A stretch of DNA of 64,000 bases from Octopus vulgaris. Taxonomy: Eukaryota. Positions 7,436-20,621 of this stretch are shown one piece after another. Made by a program: the position numbers and the translations under genes. The notes beneath the pieces are model-generated. The model had not been told where the DNA came from, ran no database searches, and saw only the letters and a program-made list of their open reading frames with translations. The stretch is taken from the NCBI GenBank assembly GCA_951406725.2, contig OX597816.1, positions 13,826,001-13,890,000 of the forward strand. The letters run 5' to 3'. How positions within the stretch are numbered: the first letter of the stretch is position 1; each line of letters opens with the position of its first letter.

Positions 7436-10400
7436 GTGAGTAACACCTGACAAATGAAGTGAGTAATACCTGACAAATGAAGTAAGACTCGACAAATGAG
7501 GTGAGTAAGACCCAACAAATGAAGTAAGACTAAACAAATGAGGTGAGTAAGACCCAACAAATGAAGTAAGACTCGACAAATGAGGTGAGTAAGACTCAAC
7601 AAATGAAGTAAGACACGACAAATGAGGTGAGTAAGACCCGACAAATGAAGTAAGACTCAACAAATGAAATGAGTTAGACCTGACAAATGAAGTAAGACTC
7701 GACAAATGAGGTGAGTAAGACCTGACAAATGAAGTAAGACTCGACAAATGAGGTGAGTAAGACCTGACAAATGAAGTAAGACTCAACAAATGAAGTGAGT
7801 AAGACCTGATAAATGAAGTAAGACTCAACAAACGAAGTGAGTAAGACCTGACAAATGAAGTAAGACTCAACAAATGAGGTGAGTAAGACCCAACAAATGA
7901 AGTAAGACTCGACAAATGAGGTGAGTAAGACCCGACAAATGAAGTAAGACACGACAAATGAGGTGAGTAAGACCCAACAAATGAAGTAAGACTCAACAAA
8001 TGAGGTGAGTAAGACCTGACAAATGAAGTAAGACTCGACAAATGAAGTGAGTAAGACCTGACAAATGAAGTAAGACTCAACAAATGAGGTAAGACCTGAC
8101 AAATGAAGTAAAAACTCAACAAATGAAGTGAGTAAGACCTGACAAATGAAGTAAGACTCGACAAATGAAGTGAGTAAGACCTGACAAATGAAGTAAGACT
8201 CAACAAATGAAGTGAGTAAGACCTGACAAATGAAGTAAGACTCGACAAATGAAGTGAGTAAGACCTGACAAATGAAGTAAGACTCGACAAATGAGGTGAG
8301 TAAGACCCAACAAATGAAGTAAGACTCAACAAATGAAGTGAGTAAGAGCTGACAAATGAAGTAAGACTCAACAAATGAAGTGAGTAAGACCTGACAAATG
8401 AAGTAAGACTCAACAAATGAGGTAAGACCTGACAAATGAAGTAAGACTCAACAAATGAAGTGAGTAAGACCTGACAAATGAAGTAAGACTCAACAAATGA
8501 AGTGAGTAAGACCCAACAAATGAAGTAAGACTCAACAAATGAAGTGAGTAAGACCTGACAAATGAAGTAAGACTCGACAAATGAGGTGAGTAAGACCCAA
8601 CAAATGAAGTAAGACTCAACAAATGAGGTGAGTAAGATCCGACAAATGAAGTAAGACTCGACAAATGAAGTGAGTAAGACCTGACAAATGAAGTAAGACT
8701 CAACAAATGAGGTAAGACCTGACAAATGAAGTAAGACTCAACAAATGAAGTAAGTAAGACGTGACAAATGAAGTAAGACTCAACAAATGAGGTAAGACCT
8801 GACAAATGAAGTAAGACTCGACAAATGAAGTGAGTAAGACCTGACAAATGATGTAAGACTCGACAAATGAGGTGAGTAAGACCCGACAAATGAAGTAAGA
8901 CTCGACAAATGAAGTGAGTAAGACCTGACAAATGAAATAAGACTCAACAAATGAAGTGAGTAAGACCTGACAAATGAAGTAAGACTCAACAAATGAAGTG
9001 AGTAAGACCTGACAAATGAAGTAAGACTCGACAAATGAGGTGAGTAAGACCCAACAAATGAAGTAAGACTCGACAAATGAGGTGAGTAAGACCCAACAAA
9101 TGAAGACTCAACAAATGAAGTGAGTAAGACCTGACAAATGAAGTAAGACTCGACAAATGAGGTGAGTAAGACCCAACAAATGAAGTAAGACTCAACAAAT
9201 GAAGTGAGTAAGACCCAACAAATGAAGTAAGACTCAACAAATGAGGTGAGTAAGACCTGACAAATGAAGTAAGACTCGACAAATGAAGTGAGTAAGACCC
9301 AACAAATGGAGTAAGACTCAACAAATGAAGTGAGTAAGACCTGACAAATGAAGTAAGACTCAACAAATGAGGTGAGTAAGACCTGGCAAATGAAGTAAGA
9401 CTCGACAAATGAAGTGAGTAAGACCCAACAAATGAAGTAAGACTCAACAAATGAGGTGAGTAAGACCCAACAAATGAAGTAAGACTCAACAAATGAAGTA
9501 AGTAAGAGCTGACAAATGAAGTAAGACTCGACAAATGAGGTGAGTAAGACCTGACAAATGAAGTAAGACTCAACAAATGAAGTAAGTAAGAGCTGACAAA
9601 TGAAGTAAGACTCGACAAATGAGGTGAGTAAGACCCAACAAATGAAGTAAGACTCAACAAATGAAGTGAGTAAGACCTGACAAATGAAGTAAGACTCAAC
9701 AAATGAAGTGAGTAAGACCTGACAAATGATGTAAGACTCGACAAATGAGGTGAGTAAGACCCGACAAATGAAGTAAGACTCGACAAATGAAGTGAGTAAG
9801 ACCTGACAAATGAAATAAGACTCAACAAATGAAGTGAGTAAGACCTGACAAATGAAGTAAGACTCAACAAATGAAGTGAGTAAGACCTGACAAATGAAGT
9901 AAGACTCGACAAATGAGGTGAGTAAGACCCAACAAATGAAGTAAGACTCGACAAATGAGGTGAGTAAGACCCAACAAATGAAGACTCAACAAATGAAGTG
10001 AGTAAGACCTGACAAATGAAGTAAGACTCGACAAATGAGGTGAGTAAGACCCAACAAATGAAGTAAGACTCAACAAATGAAGTGAGTAAGACCCAACAAA
10101 TGAAGTAAGACTCAACAAATGAGGTGAGTAAGACCTGACAAATGAAGTAAGACTCGACAAATGAAGTGAGTAAGACCCAACAAATGAGTAGACTCAACAA
10201 ATGAAGTGAGTAAGACCTGACAAATGAAGTAAGACTCAACAAATGAAGGTGAGTAAGACCTGGCAAATGAAGTAAGACTCGACAAATGAAGTGAGTAAGA
10301 CCCAACAAATGAAGTAAGACTCAACAAATGAGGTGAGTAAGACCCAACAAATGAAGTAAGACTCAACAAATGAAGTAAGTAAGAGCTGACAAATGAAGTA

Positions 10401-13400
10401 AGACTCGACAAATGAGGTGAGTAAGACCTGACAAATGAAGTAAGACTCGACAAATGAGGTGAGTAAGACCCAACAAATGAAGTAAGACCCAACAAATGAA
10501 GTGAGTAAGACCTGACAAATGAAGTAAGACTCAACAAATGAAGTGAGTAAGACCTGACAAATGAAGTAAGACTCGACAAATGAAGTGAGTAAGACCTGAC
10601 AAATGAAGTAAGACTCAACAAATGAAGTGAGTAAGACCTGACAAATGAAGTAAGACTCAACAAATGAAGTGAGTAAGACCTGACAAATGAAGTAAGACTC
10701 GACAAATGAAGTGAGTAAGACCCGACAAATGAAGTAAGACTCAACAAATGAAGTGAGTAAGACCTGACAAATGAAGTAAGACTCAACAAATGAAGTGAGT
10801 AAGACCCAACAAATGAAGTAAGACTCAACAAATGAAGTGAGTAAGACCTGACAAATGAAGTAAGACTCGACAAATGAGGTGAGTAAGACCCAACAAATGA
10901 AGTAAGACTCAACAAATGAAGTGAGTAAGACCTGACAAATGAGGTGAGTAAGACTCAACAAATGAAGTGAGTAAGACCTGACAAATGAAGTAAGACTCAA
11001 CAAATGAAGTGAGTAAGACCTGACAAATGAAATAAGACTCAACAAATGAAGTGAGTAAGACCTGACAAATGAAGTAAGACTCGACAAATGAGGTGAGTAA
11101 GACCCAACAACTGAAGTAAGACTCGACAAATGAGGTGAGTAAGACCCAACAAATGAAGTAAGACTCAACAAATGAAGTGAGTAAGACCTGACAAATGAAG
11201 TAAGACTCGACAAATGAGGTGAGTAAGACCCAACAAATGAAGTAAGACTCGACAAATGAGGTGAGTAAGACCCAACAAATGAAGTAAGACTCAACAAATG
11301 AAGTGAGTAAGACCTGACAAATGAAGTAAGACTCGACAAATGAGGTGAGTAAGACCCAACAAATGAAGTAAGACTCAACAAATGAAGTGAGTAAGACCTG
11401 ACAAATGAAGTAAGACTCAACAAATGAGGTGAGTAAGACCTGACAAATGAAGTAAGACTCGACAAATGAAGTAAGACCCAACAAATGAAGTAAGACTCAA
11501 CAAATGAAGTGAGTAAGACCCAACAAATGAAGTAAGACTCAACAAATGAGGTGAGTAAGACCTGACAAATGAAGTAAGACTCGACAAATGAAGTGAGTAA
11601 GACCCAACAAATGAAGTAAGACTCGACAAATGAGGTGAGTAAGACCCAACAAATGAAGTAAGACTCAACAAATGAAGTGAGTAAGACCTGACAAATGAAG
11701 TAAGACTCAACAAATGAAGTGAGTAAGACCCAACAAATGAAGTAAGACTCGACAAATGAGGTGAGTAAGACCCAACAAATGAAGTAAGACTCGACAAATG
11801 AAGTGAGTAAGACCTGACAAATGAAGTAAGACTCAACAAATGAAGTGAGTAAGACCTGACAAATGAAGTAAGACTCGACAAATGAGGTGAGTAAGACCCA
11901 ACAAATGAAGTAAGACTCGACAAATGAGGTGAGTAAGACCCAACAAATGAAGTAAGACTCAACAAATGAAGTGAGTAAGACCTGACAAATGAAGTAAGAC
12001 TCGACAAATGAGGTGAGTAAGACCCAACAAATGAAGTAAGACTCAACAAATGAAGTGAGTAAGACCTGACAAATGAAGTAAGACTCAACAAATGAGGTGA
12101 GTAAGACCTGACAAATGAAGTAAGACTCGACAAATGAAGTAAGACCCAACAAATGAAGTAAGACTCAACAAATGAAGTGAGTAAGACCCAACAAATGAAG
12201 TAAGACTCAACAAATGAGGTGAGTAAGACCCAACAAATGAAGTAAGACTCAACAAATGAAGTGAGTAAGACCTGACAAATGAAGTAAGACTCGACAAATG
12301 AGGTGAGTAAGACCTGACAAATGAAGTAAGACTCGACAAATGAGGTGAGTAAGACCCAACAAATGAAGTAAGACCCAACAAATGAAGTGAGTAAGACCTG
12401 ACAAATGAAGTAAGACTCAACAAATGAAGTGAGTAAGACCTGACAAATGAAGTAAGACTCGACAAATGAAGTGAGTAAGACCTGACAAATGAAGTAAGAC
12501 TCAACAAATGAAGTGAGTAAGACCTGACAAATGAAGTAAGACTCGACAAATGAGGTGAGTAAGACCCGACAAATGAAGTAAGACTCGACAAATGAAGTGA
12601 GTAAGACCTGACAAATGAAGTAAGACTCAACAAATGAAGTGAGTAAGACCTGACAAATGAAGTAAGACTCAACAAATGAAGTGAGTAAGACCCAACAAAT
12701 GAAGTAAGACTCAACAAATGAAGTGAGTAAGACCAGACAAATGAAGTAAGACTCGACAAATGAGGTGAGTAAGACCTGACAAATGAAGTAAGACTCAACA
12801 AATGAAGTGAGTAAGACCTGACAAATGAAGTAAGACTCAACAAATGAAGTGAGTAAGACCCGACAAATGAAGTAAGACTCGACAAATGAAGTGAGTAAGA
12901 CCTGACAAATGAAATAAGACTCAACAAATGAAGTGAGTAAGACCTGACAAATGAAGTAAGACTCAACAAATGAAGTGAGTAAGACCCAACAACTGAAGTA
13001 AGACTCGACAAATGAGGTGAGTAAGACCCAACAAATGAAGTAAGACTCAACAAATGAAGTGAGTAAGACCTGACAAATGAAGTAAGACTCAACAAATGAA
13101 GTGAGTAAGACCTGACAAATGAAGTAAGACTCAACAAATGAAGTGAGTAAGACCTGACAAATGAAGTAAGACTCGACAAATGAAGTGAGTAAGACCTGAC
13201 AAATGAAGTAAGACTCAACAAATGAAGTGAGTAAGACCTGACAAATGAAGTAAGACTCGACAAATGAGGTGAGTAAGACCCAACAAATGAAGTAAGACTC
13301 AACAAATGAAGTGAGTAAGACCTGACAAATGAAGTAAGACTCAACAAATGAGGTGAGTAAGACCCAACAAATGAAGTAAGACTCGACAAATGAGGTGAGT

Positions 13401-14893
13401 AAGACCCAACAAATGAAGTAAGACTCAACAAATGAAGGTGAGTAAGACCTGACAAATGAAGTAAGACTCAACAAATGAAGTGAGTAAGACCTGACAAATG
13501 AAGTAAGACTCAACAAATGAAGTGAGTAAGACCTGACAAATGAAGTAAGACTCAACAAATGAGGTGAGTAAGACCTGACAAATGAAGTAAGACTCAACAA
13601 ATGAAGTGAGTAAGACCCAACAAATGAAGTAAGACTCGACAAATGAGGTGAGTAAGACCCAACAAATGAAGTAAGACTCAACAAATGAAGTGAGTAAGAC
13701 CTGACAAATGAAGTAAGACTCGACAAATGAGGTGAGTAAGACCTGACAAATGAAGTAAGACTCAACAAATGAAGTGAGTAAGACCTGACAAATGAAGTAA
13801 GACTCAACAAATGAAGTGAGTAAGACCTGACAAATGAAGTAAGACTCAACAAATGAAGTGAGTAAGACCTGACAAATGAAGTAAGACTCAACAAATGAAG
13901 TGAGTAAGACCTGACAAATGAAGTAAGACTCAACAAATGAGGTGAGTAAGACCTGACAAATGAAGTAAGACTCAACAAATGAAGTGAGTAAGACCTGACA
14001 AATGAAGTAAGACTCGACAAATGAGGTGAGTAAGACCCAACAAATGAAGTAAGACTCAACAAATGAAGTGAGTAAGACCTGACAAATGAAGTAAGACTCA
14101 ACAAATGAAGTGAGTAAGACCTGACAAATGAAGTAAGACTCGACAAATGAGGTGAGTAAGACCCAACAAATGAAGTAAGACTCAACAAATGAAGTGAGTA
14201 AGACCTGACAAATGAAGTAAGACTCGACAAATGAGGTGAGTAAGACCCAACAAATGAAGTAAGACTCGACAAATGAGGTGAGTAAGACCCAACAAATGAA
14301 GTAAGACTCAACAAATGAGGTGAGTAAGACCCAACAAATGAAGTAAGACTCGACAAATGAAGTGAGTAAGACCTGACAAATGAAGTAAGACTCAACAAAT
14401 GAAGTGAGTAAGACCTGACAAATGAAGTAAGACTCAACAAATGAAGGTGAGTAAGACCTGACAAATGAAGTAAGACTCAACAAATGAGGTGAGTAAGACC
14501 CAACAAATGAAGTAAGACTCAACAAATGAAGTGAGTAAGACCTGACAAATGAAGTAAGACTCAACAAATGAAGTGAGTAAAACCTGACAAATGAAGTAAG
14601 ACTCGACAAATGAAGTGAGTAAGACCTGACAAATGAAGTAAGATTCAACAAATGAGGTGAGTAAGACCTGACAAATGAAGTAAGACTCGACAAATGAAGT
14701 GAGTAAGACCTGACAAATGAAGTAAGACTCAACAAATGAAGTGAGTAAGACCTGACAAATGAAGTAAGACTCGACAAATGAGGTGAGTAAGACCTGACAA
14801 ATGAAGTAAGACTCAACAAATGAAGTGAGTAAGACACGACAAATGAAGTTTAACTCGACAAATGAAGTGAGTAAGACCTGACAAATGAAGTGA
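7436..14893. repeat. ~7.45 kb minisatellite/satellite array, 42-bp unit (23-nt AAGACCYRACAAATGARGTGAGT-type + 19-nt AAGACTCRACAAATGAAGT-type subunits), ~177 copies
   Basis: Directly visible tandem array with three common variable sites and rare variants that reveal higher-order duplications. Confidence 0.98.
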
Positions 14894-15025
14894 TTCCATA
14901 GCTCACAGGATGGCCTGATGTGCTAACTTTGGGTCGTAGAGTGACCCGCTGTGCTTGAGGAGACCTATTGAGTCAAGTACATCAACATCAAAATAAAAAT
15001 CAAACGGAAATTGTAGTTGTGATAC
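14885..15025 (+). mobile_element. 5'-truncated RTE-LINE 3' UTR fragment fused to the end of the satellite
   Basis: Homologous to the reverse complement of 29160-29315 and 1200-1290; shares the gagacctattgagtcaagt motif with the 3' UTR after the RTE ORF at 44720-44830. Confidence 0.75.
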
Positions 15026-15359
15026 TCGTGATATTTGTATGTACGTATGTACCAGGCATGTGCCATGAGTATTTACTCGGGGTAGGCAGTTGGTGACATT
15101 TATGTAGTAAAACACACACAAAAATAAGCGAAACACAAGCGTGCATCGGACTTGGAGGCAGAATTACTTCAGCCGTTATAGTCATTATGTGAATAGGTGG
15201 ATGTCAGGAGTCGAAGCGATTGCAGAGTGATGTGGTATGAAGTGTTATGCTCAAGAGCACAACACACCGCTCGACCCAGGAATTGAAACCACAATTTCAT
15301 GATTGTGAGTGCAACACCCTAACCACTAGACCAGACAGTAAATAAAGAAAGGATGGTTA

Positions 15360-15680
15360 TGTGTGTGTGTGTATGTGTGCACATGTGTGTGCAAGTGTGT
15401 TTTTAGTTTGTGTGTGTGTGCACGCGTGTGCATGTGTGTACATTTTTGTGATGTGTCCCTGTGCGTTTTTGTGTGTGCATGTATGTGTGTGTGTGCATGT
15501 GCATTTTGTGTGTTTGTGCGTTTTTTTGTGGGGGTGGCATTTTTGTGTGTGTGTGCATGTATGTTTTTTGTGTGTGTCTGTGTGTGTGTGTGTCTGTGTT
15601 TGTGTGTGTGTGTCTGTGTGTGTGTGTGTCTGTATTTGTGTGTGTGTGTGTCTGTGTTTGTGTGTGTGTGTATGTGTGTG
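15360..15680. repeat. Degenerate (GT)n microsatellite
   Basis: Directly visible. Confidence 0.9.
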
Positions 15681-15791
15681 AATTACTTTCATGTTTGCAT
15701 AAGTAGAAGAAATTTCTTTTCTAAATAAAATGAGAACATTATCAAACCAAACGGAAATCAATAGGAGAGGGAGAGAGAGAGATGGGGAGAT

Positions 15792-15824
<33 letters not shown>

Positions 15825-16083
15825 TGAGAGAGAGAGTTTACACGCATTTGACTATATATAACTTGGTACACTATTACCTTTAGTGCAGTGAGTATAAGTG
15901 TGAGGTACAATTGAAAATACTAAAGACAGAGAAAGAGAGAGGGAAGAACCATGAGTGAAACAAATTGAAATTTACATCAAGAGTGCAATAGCTGTGAGGT
16001 AAATTTGTAAAAAGGTAATTTTCACAATGTCATGAGATGAAATACTTCTGACATTGCTGGTGGCCATTTGCAAAAGACAGATT

Positions 16084-16566
<483 letters not shown>

Positions 16567-16965
16567 GAAAAACCCTAAAAAAATAAATAAATGGTAAATA
16601 AATACAGGTCCCTCAGATTCTGGTTGTTCTTGCTGTTGTTATCTAACCTTAGGTTGTGTCTGATACAGTTGACCTATAAAGAAGAACATTCCCAGATGTA
16701 ACCAGTTGGGGAAGAAGAGGTGGGGGTGAGTGTCATATACTTTACTCTTTTTTTTTACTTGTTTCAGTAATTTGACTGTGGCCATGCTGGAGCACCGCCT
16801 TCAGTCGAGCAAATCAACCACAGGACTTATTCTTTGTAAGCCTAGTACTTATTCTATCAGTCTCTTTTGCCAAACTGCTAAGTTACGTATACACACCAGC
16901 ATCAGTTGTCAAGCGATGTTGGGGGGAAAAACACAGACACACAAACATATATACACACACACACT

Positions 16966-16997
<32 letters not shown>

Positions 16998-17816
16998 CGG
17001 CAGGCTTCTTTCAGTTTCTGTCTACCAAATCCACTCACAAGGCTTTAGTCAGCCCGAGACTATAGTAGACGACAGGTACCAAATCTGTCATTCATAGCCC
17101 ACCAAGAATAGAATTGCCATTTTTATATGTAGGGAGTAAATAATAAATTTGCTGGTGTGTGTAAAGCATTGTCAAGCTAGAATTAATCAATTTAAAGGCA
17201 CATTAAGTAGAGATGATTAAAATAAATATACCTTTGTAGTAAAGATATTCATGTATACAGAAATGTGGAAAGATCTTTGTTGTTAGGACTGTCTTGGAAG
17301 AGAAATTCACCTCATAAAAAATGTGTCAGAAGACACCAAGCTAAGCAAGGAAAAATGTCATTAGATTGTATCACGTGTTTCTGTGTTGTTAAACATCATC
17401 AGCATCAGACACTAAATTTTCTGTTCATTTTCCCCAGTGAACTGTAGTTCTTTTATGTAAACAACAATAATAAATTTGCTGGAGTGTGCAAAGCATTGTC
17501 AAGTTGGATTTAATTAATGCAAGGCAAAATAAGTAGACATGATTAAAATAAGTCAGTGTGCATTTATTTTCAAGACACTTGTAATATACTTGAACATTGA
17601 AAGACTTTCACTGCTGTAACTGAGAAGACATATTTCAGATATATTTATATATAAGCTCCTTAAGGATATTTTCTTGAGGATTAATTTATGGGATAATTCT
17701 ATCGTTTTCACAGTAAATATCACAAACACAATTATTATTAGTGACAACTAGTATCACAAACACAGCTTTCAGTCAAAAGAAGCAGAAAAAAAACCATACA
17801 ACTTTCTGATGTAATT

Positions 17817-17957
17817 CATCATCGCCATCATCACCATCATCATCGTTATCATCCTCTTCATCATCAGTGTCTGTCATCATTATCATCATCATCAGTGTCA
17901 TCGTCCTCTTCATTATCAGTGTCTGTCATCATCATCATCATCAGTGTCATCATCCTC

Positions 17958-17992
<35 letters not shown>

Positions 17993-18207
17993 CATCATCA
18001 TCACCATCATCATCCTCTTCATTATCAGTGTCTGTCATCATCATCATCATCATCAGTGTCATCATTCTCTTCATCAGTGCATCATCATCATCATCATCAT
18101 TATCAGTGTCTGTCATCATCATCATCAGCAGCATCATCAGTGTCTGTCTGTCATCACTCTCATCATCATCATCATCATCATCATCTTCAGTGTCGTCATC
18201 ATTATCA
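17817..18207. repeat. (CAT)n-derived low-complexity tract, an expanded RTE tail
   Basis: Abuts the RTE tail terminus at ~18205. Confidence 0.85.
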
Positions 18208-18574
18208 TTTAACATCTGTTTTCCAAGCCGGCATGGGTTGGAAGGAGATGGCAAGACCAGGAGATGCACCAGGTTCTATTATCTGTTTTGGCCTGGTTTC
18301 TACAGACAGATGCCCTTCCTAATGCCAACCACTCTACAGAGCATACAGGATGCTTTATACATGGCACCAACACCAATGCTTTCTTACGTGGCACCAGCAC
18401 CATCAAAGTAACCAAGCAATTATTTTTTTTTTAAATCCAGATGTTCTATGAATTTCTCATTAGTTAAAGGTAATAGACAATACACGTCACGGATGGTTGC
18501 TTCCTGTTAGTGTCTCATCATACCGGCCATAGCATTGGCAATTTGTATCCAGTTATCTACTCTGATATACTACT

Positions 18575-18977
18575 CTTCTCTTTACTCTATTACTTGTTTC
18601 AGTCATTTGACTGCGGCCATGCTGGAGCACCGCCTTTTTAATCGAGCAACTCGACCCCGGGACTTATTCTTTTGTAAGCCCAGTACTTATTCTATCGGTC
18701 TCTTTTTGCCGAACCGCTAAGTAACGGGGACATAAACACACCAGCATCGGTTGTCAAGCAATGCTAGAGGGACAAACACAGACACACAAACACACACACG
18801 TGCATATATACATATATACGACGGGCTTCTTTCAGTTTCCGTCTACCAAATCCACTCACAAGGCTTTGGTTGGCCCGAGGCTATAGTAGAAGACACTTGC
18901 CCACGGTGCCACGCAGTGGGACTCAACCCAGAACCACGTGGTTGGCAAGCAAGCTACTTACCACACAGCCACTCCTG
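18575..18977 (-). mobile_element. SINE family A
   Basis: Near full-length homology to 23024-23445. Confidence 0.85.
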
Positions 18978-20621
18978 ACTGTTCATTTATAATACAAAGA
19001 CGTTTCGGTATAATTATGCCACCACCAAAGATTACAGTAAACTGATCATTAAATATAAAAATTTTGTAATTCTTTTCAGCAACAAGAGGTAAACTAATTC
19101 AAATTCAAATTTGCTCCAAGGTTTGGTTTATTCTAATTTTTTGTCTTCTTCTATTATTTTTTGTTGTTTTATTTGTTTTATTTTTTTTCTTGTTTTCTGG
19201 GGGAATTTTTCCACAACTATTTTGCACTCCTGACATGTTTTCAAAATTGAAATCAGAGAGATTAACTAGAAGTAATGCTTTTTTGATTGTTGTTTTTTTT
19301 TTTTTTAAACTTTTTTTACTTTTTTGCTTTTTTTTCTGAAAATACTGAATTTTTAGTAGCTATTTGTGACTCTGCACTGCTGAAAGATAATCAAGATAAG
19401 ATAGAAGCTGCTTTGTAAAATTCCTCATCAAGTATAGAGAGATAAGTTGTCACGAAACAGAGACACAGCCAAGAAAATTACTGCTTTCATTTCAACTCAA
19501 TCAAAAACCTTAAGGGTATAAATTCTTGTTTTCATTTTTTTCTCTTTTACTTCTCAATTTATCTCTCTCTCTCTCTTTCTCTCCCTCCCCCTCCCTCTCT
19601 CTCTCTCTTTATTGTTGTTGTTGTTGTTATATGTTTTCCCCTCACAAACAATTCCATTTCATTATAGAAAAAATAAAAATAAAAATAATTAAATAAAGTC
19701 AAACAAAAACCATAGATTAATTCAAATTGTATTCAGAATTAACATTGCTTGCTGTTTTCTTTTTTTTTTCTTTCTTTCTAATATATTTTTCAATTTTGCT
19801 GGGTTCATTACTAAATTTTTTTTTTGTGTGTGTTGTATGTTATTTTTGGGATTTTTTTTTTTTTTTAGTTTTTAGTTTTATGCATCTATATATATTTTTT
19901 ATTAAATGAATGGCCACTTCTTCACATGATTAGAAAAAAGAACCAATGAATTTTTGGATAGTTATACGAACAATGTGATTTGTGTGCACTTATAAAGGTA
20001 AAAGAAGCAAATATAATTACATCTTCTACAAGTTATTCAAAAGGCAACACCCAGAAGACATTTGAAAAATAGAGTACAGCTTCTTGAACAAATCTCTGAA
20101 TAACGATTTATTCCAATAACCAAATCACGTTCTTCAGCCTGTGCCAAACAAAACAACAAGTTGCAGAGAAGCAGATAAACCAATCAAATATCAATTGCCG
20201 ACGTTCTTGAAGCCGAGAAATATCAATGTTATGAATTGAAGAATTATATCTGGAAAAATGTGAAGTGGAGGAGGAGGAAACCTTTCCAATTAAGCAAACT
20301 AGGACGGATAGGCATCAGACATAGATTTTGAACCATTTCCAAACATTGGACTAACCAAAATTAGCGGCTTAACTGATTACTCAATCACCATGCCTTCTTT
20401 ATGGTCGAAATTTTAACTTTCTGGCTGTAAGTTAAAGGGTGAACAGAAACACTTAACAATGGTTCTTACAATGCCAATTCTTTCTAAAGAATTTAATGAA
20501 ATTAATAAAATATGGCAACCTTTTTTTATAACAAATTACATCAAATTTCATTTTTACGGAAAAGAAATTCAGAGCAGAGCATCAGACAAAATGCTTAGTG
20601 GTGTTCATTTAGACTTTCTGC

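Follow-up and report, generated by a model that had tools for sequence, protein, structure and literature searches.

How do minisatellites start? This is still poorly explained, and the question is raised by a locus in the genome of Octopus vulgaris that keeps the seed, the parent element and the junction between them together. The locus lies in a stretch of 64,000 nucleotides (GenBank assembly GCA_951406725.2, contig OX597816.1, positions 13,826,001 to 13,890,000 of the forward strand; hereafter, the window, whose own numbering is used below) and consists of a 7.4-kb tandem array that runs directly into a 158-bp piece of a long interspersed nuclear element (LINE). The array is a single-locus minisatellite, and its monomer is the stop-codon region, that is, the end of the open reading frame (ORF), of a LINE subfamily. 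Probably, a cDNA that ended 18 nt upstream of the stop codon seeded the minisatellite on joining the chromosome by stuttering, microhomology-primed synthesis, and the array was probably expanded long after by slippage and unequal exchange.

The array and its monomer

Tandem Repeats Finder (TRF), applied to the window, delineated a repeat with a period of 42 at 7450-14891, with 177.8 copies and 93% matches. Counting LINE positions as +n or -n from the T of the LINE stop codon (window position 14891), the 42-bp unit combines a 19-nt subunit (LINE -18..0) with a 23-nt subunit (LINE -18..+4), and about 177 such units occupy 7442..14872 on the plus strand. The array was parsed into 356 subunits, namely, 178 of 19 nt, 170 of 23 nt, 7 indel variants and, in the last place, one native copy that continues into the untranslated region (UTR) of the LINE. 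Long and short subunits alternate, with 15 breaks (3 long-long and 12 short-short), and all units begin at one common 5' boundary. The TRF result and the parse bear out an earlier reading of the window (hereafter, the original prediction), which had described an array of 7.4 kb, expanded ~177-fold, with the 19-nt subunit representing the 23-nt motif without GAGT. The head-to-tail unit of 42 bp and the array length of 7.4 kb are those of a minisatellite (units of 10-100 bp in arrays of 0.5 to tens of kb), and so are the interspersed variant units with block duplications.

The native LINE piece (14873..15030, plus strand) comprises the last six codons, the stop codon (TGA at 14891) and 139 bp of the 3' UTR, and differs from the subfamily majority at 10 of 158 bp (6.3%). 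It stops at +139 (~15030), whereas full copies reach about +450 and a (GAT)n tail, ~310 bp farther. The array is indeed fused to the 5' edge of a truncated copy, as originally described, but the truncation is not confined to the 5' end, the piece being cut at both ends and lacking the (GAT)n tail. It shows neither the intact 3' tail nor the target-site duplication (TSD) of a canonical 5'-truncated product of target-primed reverse transcription.

Within the array, the long unit carries a fixed C>T change (AAGACTC[A/G]AC..., the T being present in 159 of 163 dimers), and only 7 short units retain the CCGA head; the short units have CTG in 109 cases, CCA in 56 and CCG in 7. CpG-decay variants are found in both subunit classes. 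Among the 163 short-plus-long dimers, four sites are polymorphic at 30-60%, and the mean pairwise difference is 5.6%. On its minus strand, the array has long open frames (up to 1,019 aa), which were rejected as a consequence of the tandem repetition. Nothing points to a function: as a single array it shows no sign of one and is at most a candidate length marker.

The parent LINE

A search with the UTR segment that follows the array (14893-15025), with the best 40 of 1,302 candidates scored, led to 29 other loci, which mostly continue upstream into a reading frame ending in KTRQMK*; this is the end of the subfamily reading frame. In an alignment of 23 genomic copies, the majority base of each motif column is held by 17-23 copies, and these bases spell the 23-mer of the original prediction, confirming that the monomer derives from the LINE ORF end, although the window has 0 exact occurrences of this 23-mer.

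A longer copy, L301, contains a 375-aa frame that ends at the motif and matches Pfam RVT_1. The reverse transcriptase (RT) domain of elements that lack long terminal repeats (non-LTR elements), PF00078, exceeded the cut-off in 2 of the 3 L301 frames that were scanned. The closest homologues (45-52% identity) are mostly proteins of 1,000-1,100 aa that combine an endonuclease domain, PF03372, with PF00078 and, in many cases, PF00628; no intact local copy was obtained. After the RT, the L301 frame (P0001, L301:6746-7873) contains a Cys/His-rich insert, and many homologues are annotated with PF00628 (PHD). The UTR of ~450 bp is followed by a simple-repeat (GAT)n tail in the 100 copies examined, and a UTR 24-mer has 2,701 exact genomic matches. 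Judging from these sequence features, the parent fits a single-ORF, RTE-like LINE. The name RTE is presumably appropriate, in view of the C-terminal motif and the octopus literature (PMC13282606). A search of the PDB with the ORF end gave 0 matches.

The TSD search was positive for 2 of 100 tailed copies versus 16 of 1,983 controls; the 100 tailed copies have nearly no TSDs and are often adjoined by (AT)n runs. Tandem duplications are present elsewhere in the family. About one-third of 90 copies (in the series L179-L208 and L239-L298) carry an inherited tandem duplication of ~230 bp (-81..+147), in which the ORF end is repeated within the 3' UTR; in a second duplication variant (L183, L252), +71 is joined back to about -22. 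L306 (G000:C1:838000-842500) is a second LINE-derived array, with ~10 tandem copies of a ~170-bp 3'-UTR unit in 1.8 kb, and in L305 (G000:C1:72066500-72069000), a 32-bp UTR unit is repeated 5-6 times inside a long LINE copy.

A single locus in the assembled genome

The original prediction called the array a satellite and proposed a search for other arrays of the monomer. In the 2.8-Gb genome (227 contigs), all matches of three exact junction patterns (62 of 62, 95 of 95 and 247 of 247) fall inside the array, as do 332 of the 335 matches of a junction pattern with one mismatch allowed, for which the control matches numbered 2; of the three matches outside the array, the one examined is a chance match. 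Thus, pattern searches of the assembled genome detected no other array of the monomer, which leaves room for unassembled ones, and the several or very large arrays that characterize a satellite family were not found. The term satellite is accordingly replaced here by single-locus minisatellite.

An assembly artefact is an unlikely explanation of the array because contigs from runs X2 and X3, which bear two organism labels, hold both the unique left flank (0 differences over 154 bp and 1 over 126 bp, at depths of 51-68) and array-junction sequence, with summed depths of 1,500 to 20,000 that indicate presence, not copy number. A look-up of array length in the raw runs X21-X23 gave 6, 0 and 0 reads, these runs seemingly coming from another organism, and the low or absent depth over the array portion in runs X19 and X20 proves nothing on its length. 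Read placement at 88% identity was swamped by dispersed repeats.

Growth of the array after insertion

The divergence of the native LINE piece (6.3%) is close to the median of the dispersed copies (7.0%, n=67). A distance of 0.065 has been equated with ~18 million years in octopus (PMC13282606), and if this rate applies, the LINE insertion is of the order of ~18 million years old. The array looks different: private substitutions number 8 in the inner 6.9 kb (0.12%) versus 8 in the outer 550 bp (1.5%), so that the interior is ~50 times less diverged than the attached LINE piece. Exact repeats that include the same rare variants extend over 488 bp at a spacing of 878 bp and over 414 bp at a spacing of 668 bp. 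Both CpG-decay products of the ancestral CCG have spread through the array, and the same two products occur in the dispersed copies (CCCG 34, CCCA 22, CCTG 18). Taken together, the low divergence of the interior, the block repeats and the spread of CpG decay indicate that mutation came first and copying at the DNA level after it. The array likely grew long after the insertion, by ordinary slippage and unequal exchange.

Re-copying and truncation at the 5' junctions of the family

The original prediction linked the array to copying at a LINE 5' junction, and short re-copying does recur at the 5' junctions of the family (3 of 119). A direct scan for element-derived tandem duplications of 10-45 nt, covering 140 copies, 119 junctions and 61,507 bp, gave 16 hits, of which 7, being simple repeats in the flanks, and 2 at rearrangement joints were set aside. 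Three of the remaining 7 duplications are located at 5' junctions and 4 are internal, and the junction zones make up 2-5% of the sequence (p 0.0002-0.003). The junction duplications are three 18-nt copies in L266, a 20-nt duplication in L015 and a 19-nt one in L017. Furthermore, fold-back re-copies were observed at the 5' junctions of L008, L296 and L256. In L256 (G000:C2:107421193-107423216), the stop-codon motif is present three times, once inverted and twice in tandem, and the fold-back of L296 is located at a small ATGAA...TTCAT stem around the stop codon. These observations support seeding of the array at the 5' junction of the LINE.

Whether the motif is also a site where reverse transcription pauses or jumps, as proposed from two copies ending there in one window, is a separate question. 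The second of these copies is an independent member of the array's subfamily (28830..29315, minus strand), 5'-truncated inside the motif and retaining the full UTR and (GAT)n tail; it departs from the subfamily majority at 9 of 153 bp. In reverse complement, 29297-29315 gives the sequence originally reported, and the same UTR follows (29312-29161 versus 14880-15025, 86.8% identity over 152 bp). Just 5' of this truncation, 29321-29335 (minus strand) contains TGAAGAC and 7 extra bases, so that the true 5' end may lie at -20, with a small insertion. Two such copies in one window are weak evidence because most copies are short.

The 140 copies were sampled by patterns 3' of the motif, which leaves their 5' ends unbiased, and their segments were chained. 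Six were left out (4 rearranged and 2 ending 3' of +5), and 115 of the remaining 134 have an observed 5' end. Over the motif, there are 25 ends per 3,527 bp at risk versus 43 per 9,341 bp in the next 100 bp (ratio 1.54, p 0.058), the background rate itself declining away from the 3' end. At the 5' edge of the unit (-21..-15), 13 of 58 ends were found where 5.0 were expected (2.6-fold; p 0.002, or 0.045 for the best of any 7-bp window). Overall, the motif is a site of modest preference and not a sharp hotspot: the mild enrichment and the local cluster bear out the hotspot proposal in part. The 5' ends favor TGA (9 versus 3.7 expected), and given that the motif holds several TGA, this preference suggests microhomology rather than a structural pause. 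RNA folding, considered as a pause signal at the motif, showed nothing unusual (z 0.30, 0.72 and -0.62); a 5-bp stem at the stop codon fits the L296 fold-back without being significant. At -81, an apparent accumulation of 5' ends (38 of 57 at risk) does not reflect truncation but the breakpoint of the inherited ~230-bp duplication. In a random 200 kb of the genome, just 2 copies retained the UTR part of interest, a number too small to use.

Proposed origin of the seed

The left flank of the array, its probable insertion target, is a 95-bp inverted piece of a sister-subfamily 3' UTR without a tail (7343..7437, minus strand) that the original prediction did not include. It is 92.6% identical to window 45007-45101 (7 differences in 95 bp), whereas only 50 bp align, with 10 differences, to the array's own subfamily. 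The flank homology stops at 7437, in ...ATGT, and is followed by GAGT and then by the first full unit. The left edge is a partial first unit, GTGAGT (7436..7441, plus strand), with GAGT corresponding to LINE +1..+4 and GT common to the flank and assignable to either side; related contigs read ATGTTTTTT here. The LINE has a GTGAGT of its own 23 nt farther along, the two forming a 6-bp direct repeat, and AGT recurs after 19 nt.

The subfamily ORF ends in the motif, and the attached piece begins at the first base of the unit. From this arrangement, we infer that the flank end, ...ATGT, could have primed on the LINE at GT, copied GAGT, been released, and joined the cDNA end at AAGAC. Such a GT-GAGT-AAGAC join would place GTGAGT direct repeats 23 nt apart and AGT (LINE AGT at -2..0) 19 nt apart, so that one join would suffice: slippage between short direct repeats, while the junction was being repaired or shortly afterwards, would yield both periods. 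Either the RT of the LINE or a repair polymerase of the host, for instance Pol theta, could have been the enzyme that stuttered. As the variants suggest, a few copies would have formed with the CpG intact, one long unit would have gained the C>T change, and the pair of 19 and 23 nt would have become the amplified unit. The subsequent spread of CpG-decay variants, duplication of blocks of up to ~0.9 kb and recent homogenization of the interior are apparent as a pattern, for which the mechanism of growth named above is the probable cause. The 3' part of the LINE would have been removed by deletion.

A broader reading, which we put forward tentatively, is that, as a routine outcome of 5'-junction repair in the LINE family, the last 18-23 nt of the cDNA are re-copied 2-4 times in tandem, in about 1 insertion in 40, and that these scars may act as a systematic nursery of minisatellites in the octopus genome, with the present locus having grown to 7.4 kb while its birth junction stayed legible. 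If true, this would link the repair of retrotransposition junctions directly to minisatellite birth, and if junction stutter is the usual seed, LINE activity would predict the sites of new minisatellites. With 2,701 exact matches of the UTR 24-mer, the family offers thousands of junctions for counting seeds.

Several observations weigh against an origin at the junction. Because the 3' end of the LINE piece is missing and TSDs are nearly absent from the family, the left edge is not provable as the original junction, and a deletion through the 2-bp GT microhomology would give the same edge. The junction enrichment rests on 3 events, after 9 of the 16 hits were dropped by eye, and a first junction test showed no excess (2 of 80 versus 5 of 395 in the control), chained ends absorbing re-copies. 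The two copies in L015 have CpG-decayed bases in common, which fits duplication after insertion, and so do the changes that the tandem pair in L256 has in common and its inverted copy lacks. Internal arrays arise in the family as well (L305, L306). As for the truncation cluster, the width of the 7-bp window was picked after the data had been seen, and the CpG at -20/-19 can pile alignment ends at -19, shifting ends by 1-3 bases.

The main alternative, which keeps a minor share of the probability because the locus has lost LINE sequence on its other side, is that the first duplication arose by slippage or break repair inside a longer inserted LINE copy, and that, once the array had grown, deletions took the upstream ORF together with part of the array, through the GT microhomology, as well as the 3' UTR. 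The lost 3' end demonstrates that deletions strike the array locus, the leftmost unit is partial, and internal expansions are known in the family, including the 32-bp unit in the long copy L305, the ~ten 170-bp units of L306, L150 and L157, and the inherited ~230-bp duplication. Such a course, however, requires that the first duplication formed at -18 with no microhomology and that a deletion stopped exactly in the array. Furthermore, the 5' ends of the family cluster where the unit has its edge, junctions are enriched in re-copies of this size, and the units at the left edge are the most degenerate, as if this were the old original edge. Less probable still is the patching of a double-strand break, in which two LINE fragments, the inverted sister UTR and the ORF-end/UTR piece, would have been copied by template switching, with a stutter at the switch and later expansion. 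Both flanking pieces lack a tail, and templated patchwork insertions are typical of microhomology-mediated end joining (PMC12426944), but tailed members of the family, too, are commonly inserted into older antiparallel copies (L281, L287, L288), and 3' loss by deletion accounts equally for the missing tail.

The original prediction named reiterated copying of the ORF-end/UTR boundary by the LINE RT in the manner of telomerase, or else post-insertion slippage, as the start of the array. That the RT wrote most of the array in one such event is extremely improbable. The units do have one 5' boundary, the copy carries the array fused to its 5' end, and the R2 RT jumps templates in vitro (PMC11371274). 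In a telomerase-like product, however, the units would be as old as the insertion and their variants private, whereas the interior stands at 0.12% against 6.3% in the LINE piece, CpG decay has spread, and the four sites polymorphic at 30-60% and the rare variants in repeated blocks (spaced up to 878 bp) need DNA-level copying after mutation. This order of events rules out one-step RT reiteration for the bulk of the array and as the source of its length; only the first few units could be of RT origin. The junction origin followed by late expansion is the reading that we retain.

Relation to known arrays and junctions

Minisatellites derived from transposable elements (TEs) are well known, and the octopus array is an ordinary addition to this kind. 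Among 7,276 TE-derived human tandem repeats, 136 are partial duplications beside the 5' end of Alu, and a known mechanism is assignable to only 6% (PMC3389668). The same paper describes a model of minisatellite origin from direct repeats of 5-10 bp, along with those of Jurka and Gentles and of Haber and Louis. Like these human minisatellites, including the Alu-derived ones, the octopus array comes from a short retroelement segment and would have started via short flanking direct repeats. It is unlike them in that the direct repeat was apparently made by the 5' junction itself, in that two nested periods (19 and 23) were fused into a 42-bp unit, and in its 177 copies, compared with mostly two units in the human arrays of PMC3389668.

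Large arrays born from retroelements include mouse Ms6-hm and Hm-2 (both derived from MaLR), the cetacean common satellite, PROsat and chicken HinfI/CR1, with HinfI listed as derived from the CR1 3' UTR and part of ORF2 (PMC9659126). Unlike these, the octopus array is confined to a single locus, has a short unit, and retains an attached and readable parent junction. The word RTE is absent from the available text of that review.

At the scale of the junction, the resemblance is to the 5' junctions of non-LTR elements, which show microhomology joins, non-templated bases and snap-back, with R2 insertions combining a join and snap-back (PMC2718515, PMC11371274), and to Pol theta insertions, in which iterative templated synthesis, usually <25 bp, is primed by minimal base pairing (PMC12426944). 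Common to these and the octopus family are short, sometimes repeated, re-copies by the joint, and the fold-backs in L008, L256 and L296 resemble the snap-back junctions of non-LTR retrotransposons. The proposed junction mechanism matches the insertions of PMC12426944, the junctions of PMC11371274 and PMC2718515, and the direct-repeat model of PMC3389668. The first three papers, in their available parts, describe junction scars, to which the octopus case would add later growth into a kilobase array. A literature search, with subscription papers and supplements mostly outside its reach, found no report on octopus minisatellites or on RTE 5'-junction seeds, nor one tying LINE 5'-junction re-copies to the birth of kilobase arrays.

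Other repeats in the window

The window is rich in microsatellites and dispersed repeats. A sister-subfamily copy of the LINE is located at approximately 44388..45295 on the plus strand, with an ORF end of KTQQAK* and a different UTR start. Its segment 44699-44720, AAGACCCAGCAAGCCAAGTGAG, had been aligned with the array subunit as the end of the RTE ORF; 17 of 22 positions are identical to the motif, but the copy belongs to the sister subfamily, and its UTR has no match to 14893-15025.

Downstream of the native LINE piece, 15050..15181 (plus strand) holds part of an interspersed repeat, unrelated to the LINE, whose start, CAGG, follows TA. Among the best 40 of 871 candidates scored, identity to this piece was 81-88%, and the left boundary is common to the fetched loci. 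It may be an end of a miniature inverted-repeat transposable element (MITE) or mariner-like element.

At 709-1199, the 67-bp UTR repeat of the LINE is expanded to 7.4 copies. Other dispersed repeats are duplicated in tandem at 62310-63034, 32550-32916, 49987-50358 and 6316-6536, with units of 184 bp (x3.9 and x2), 191 bp (x1.9) and 119 bp (x1.9).

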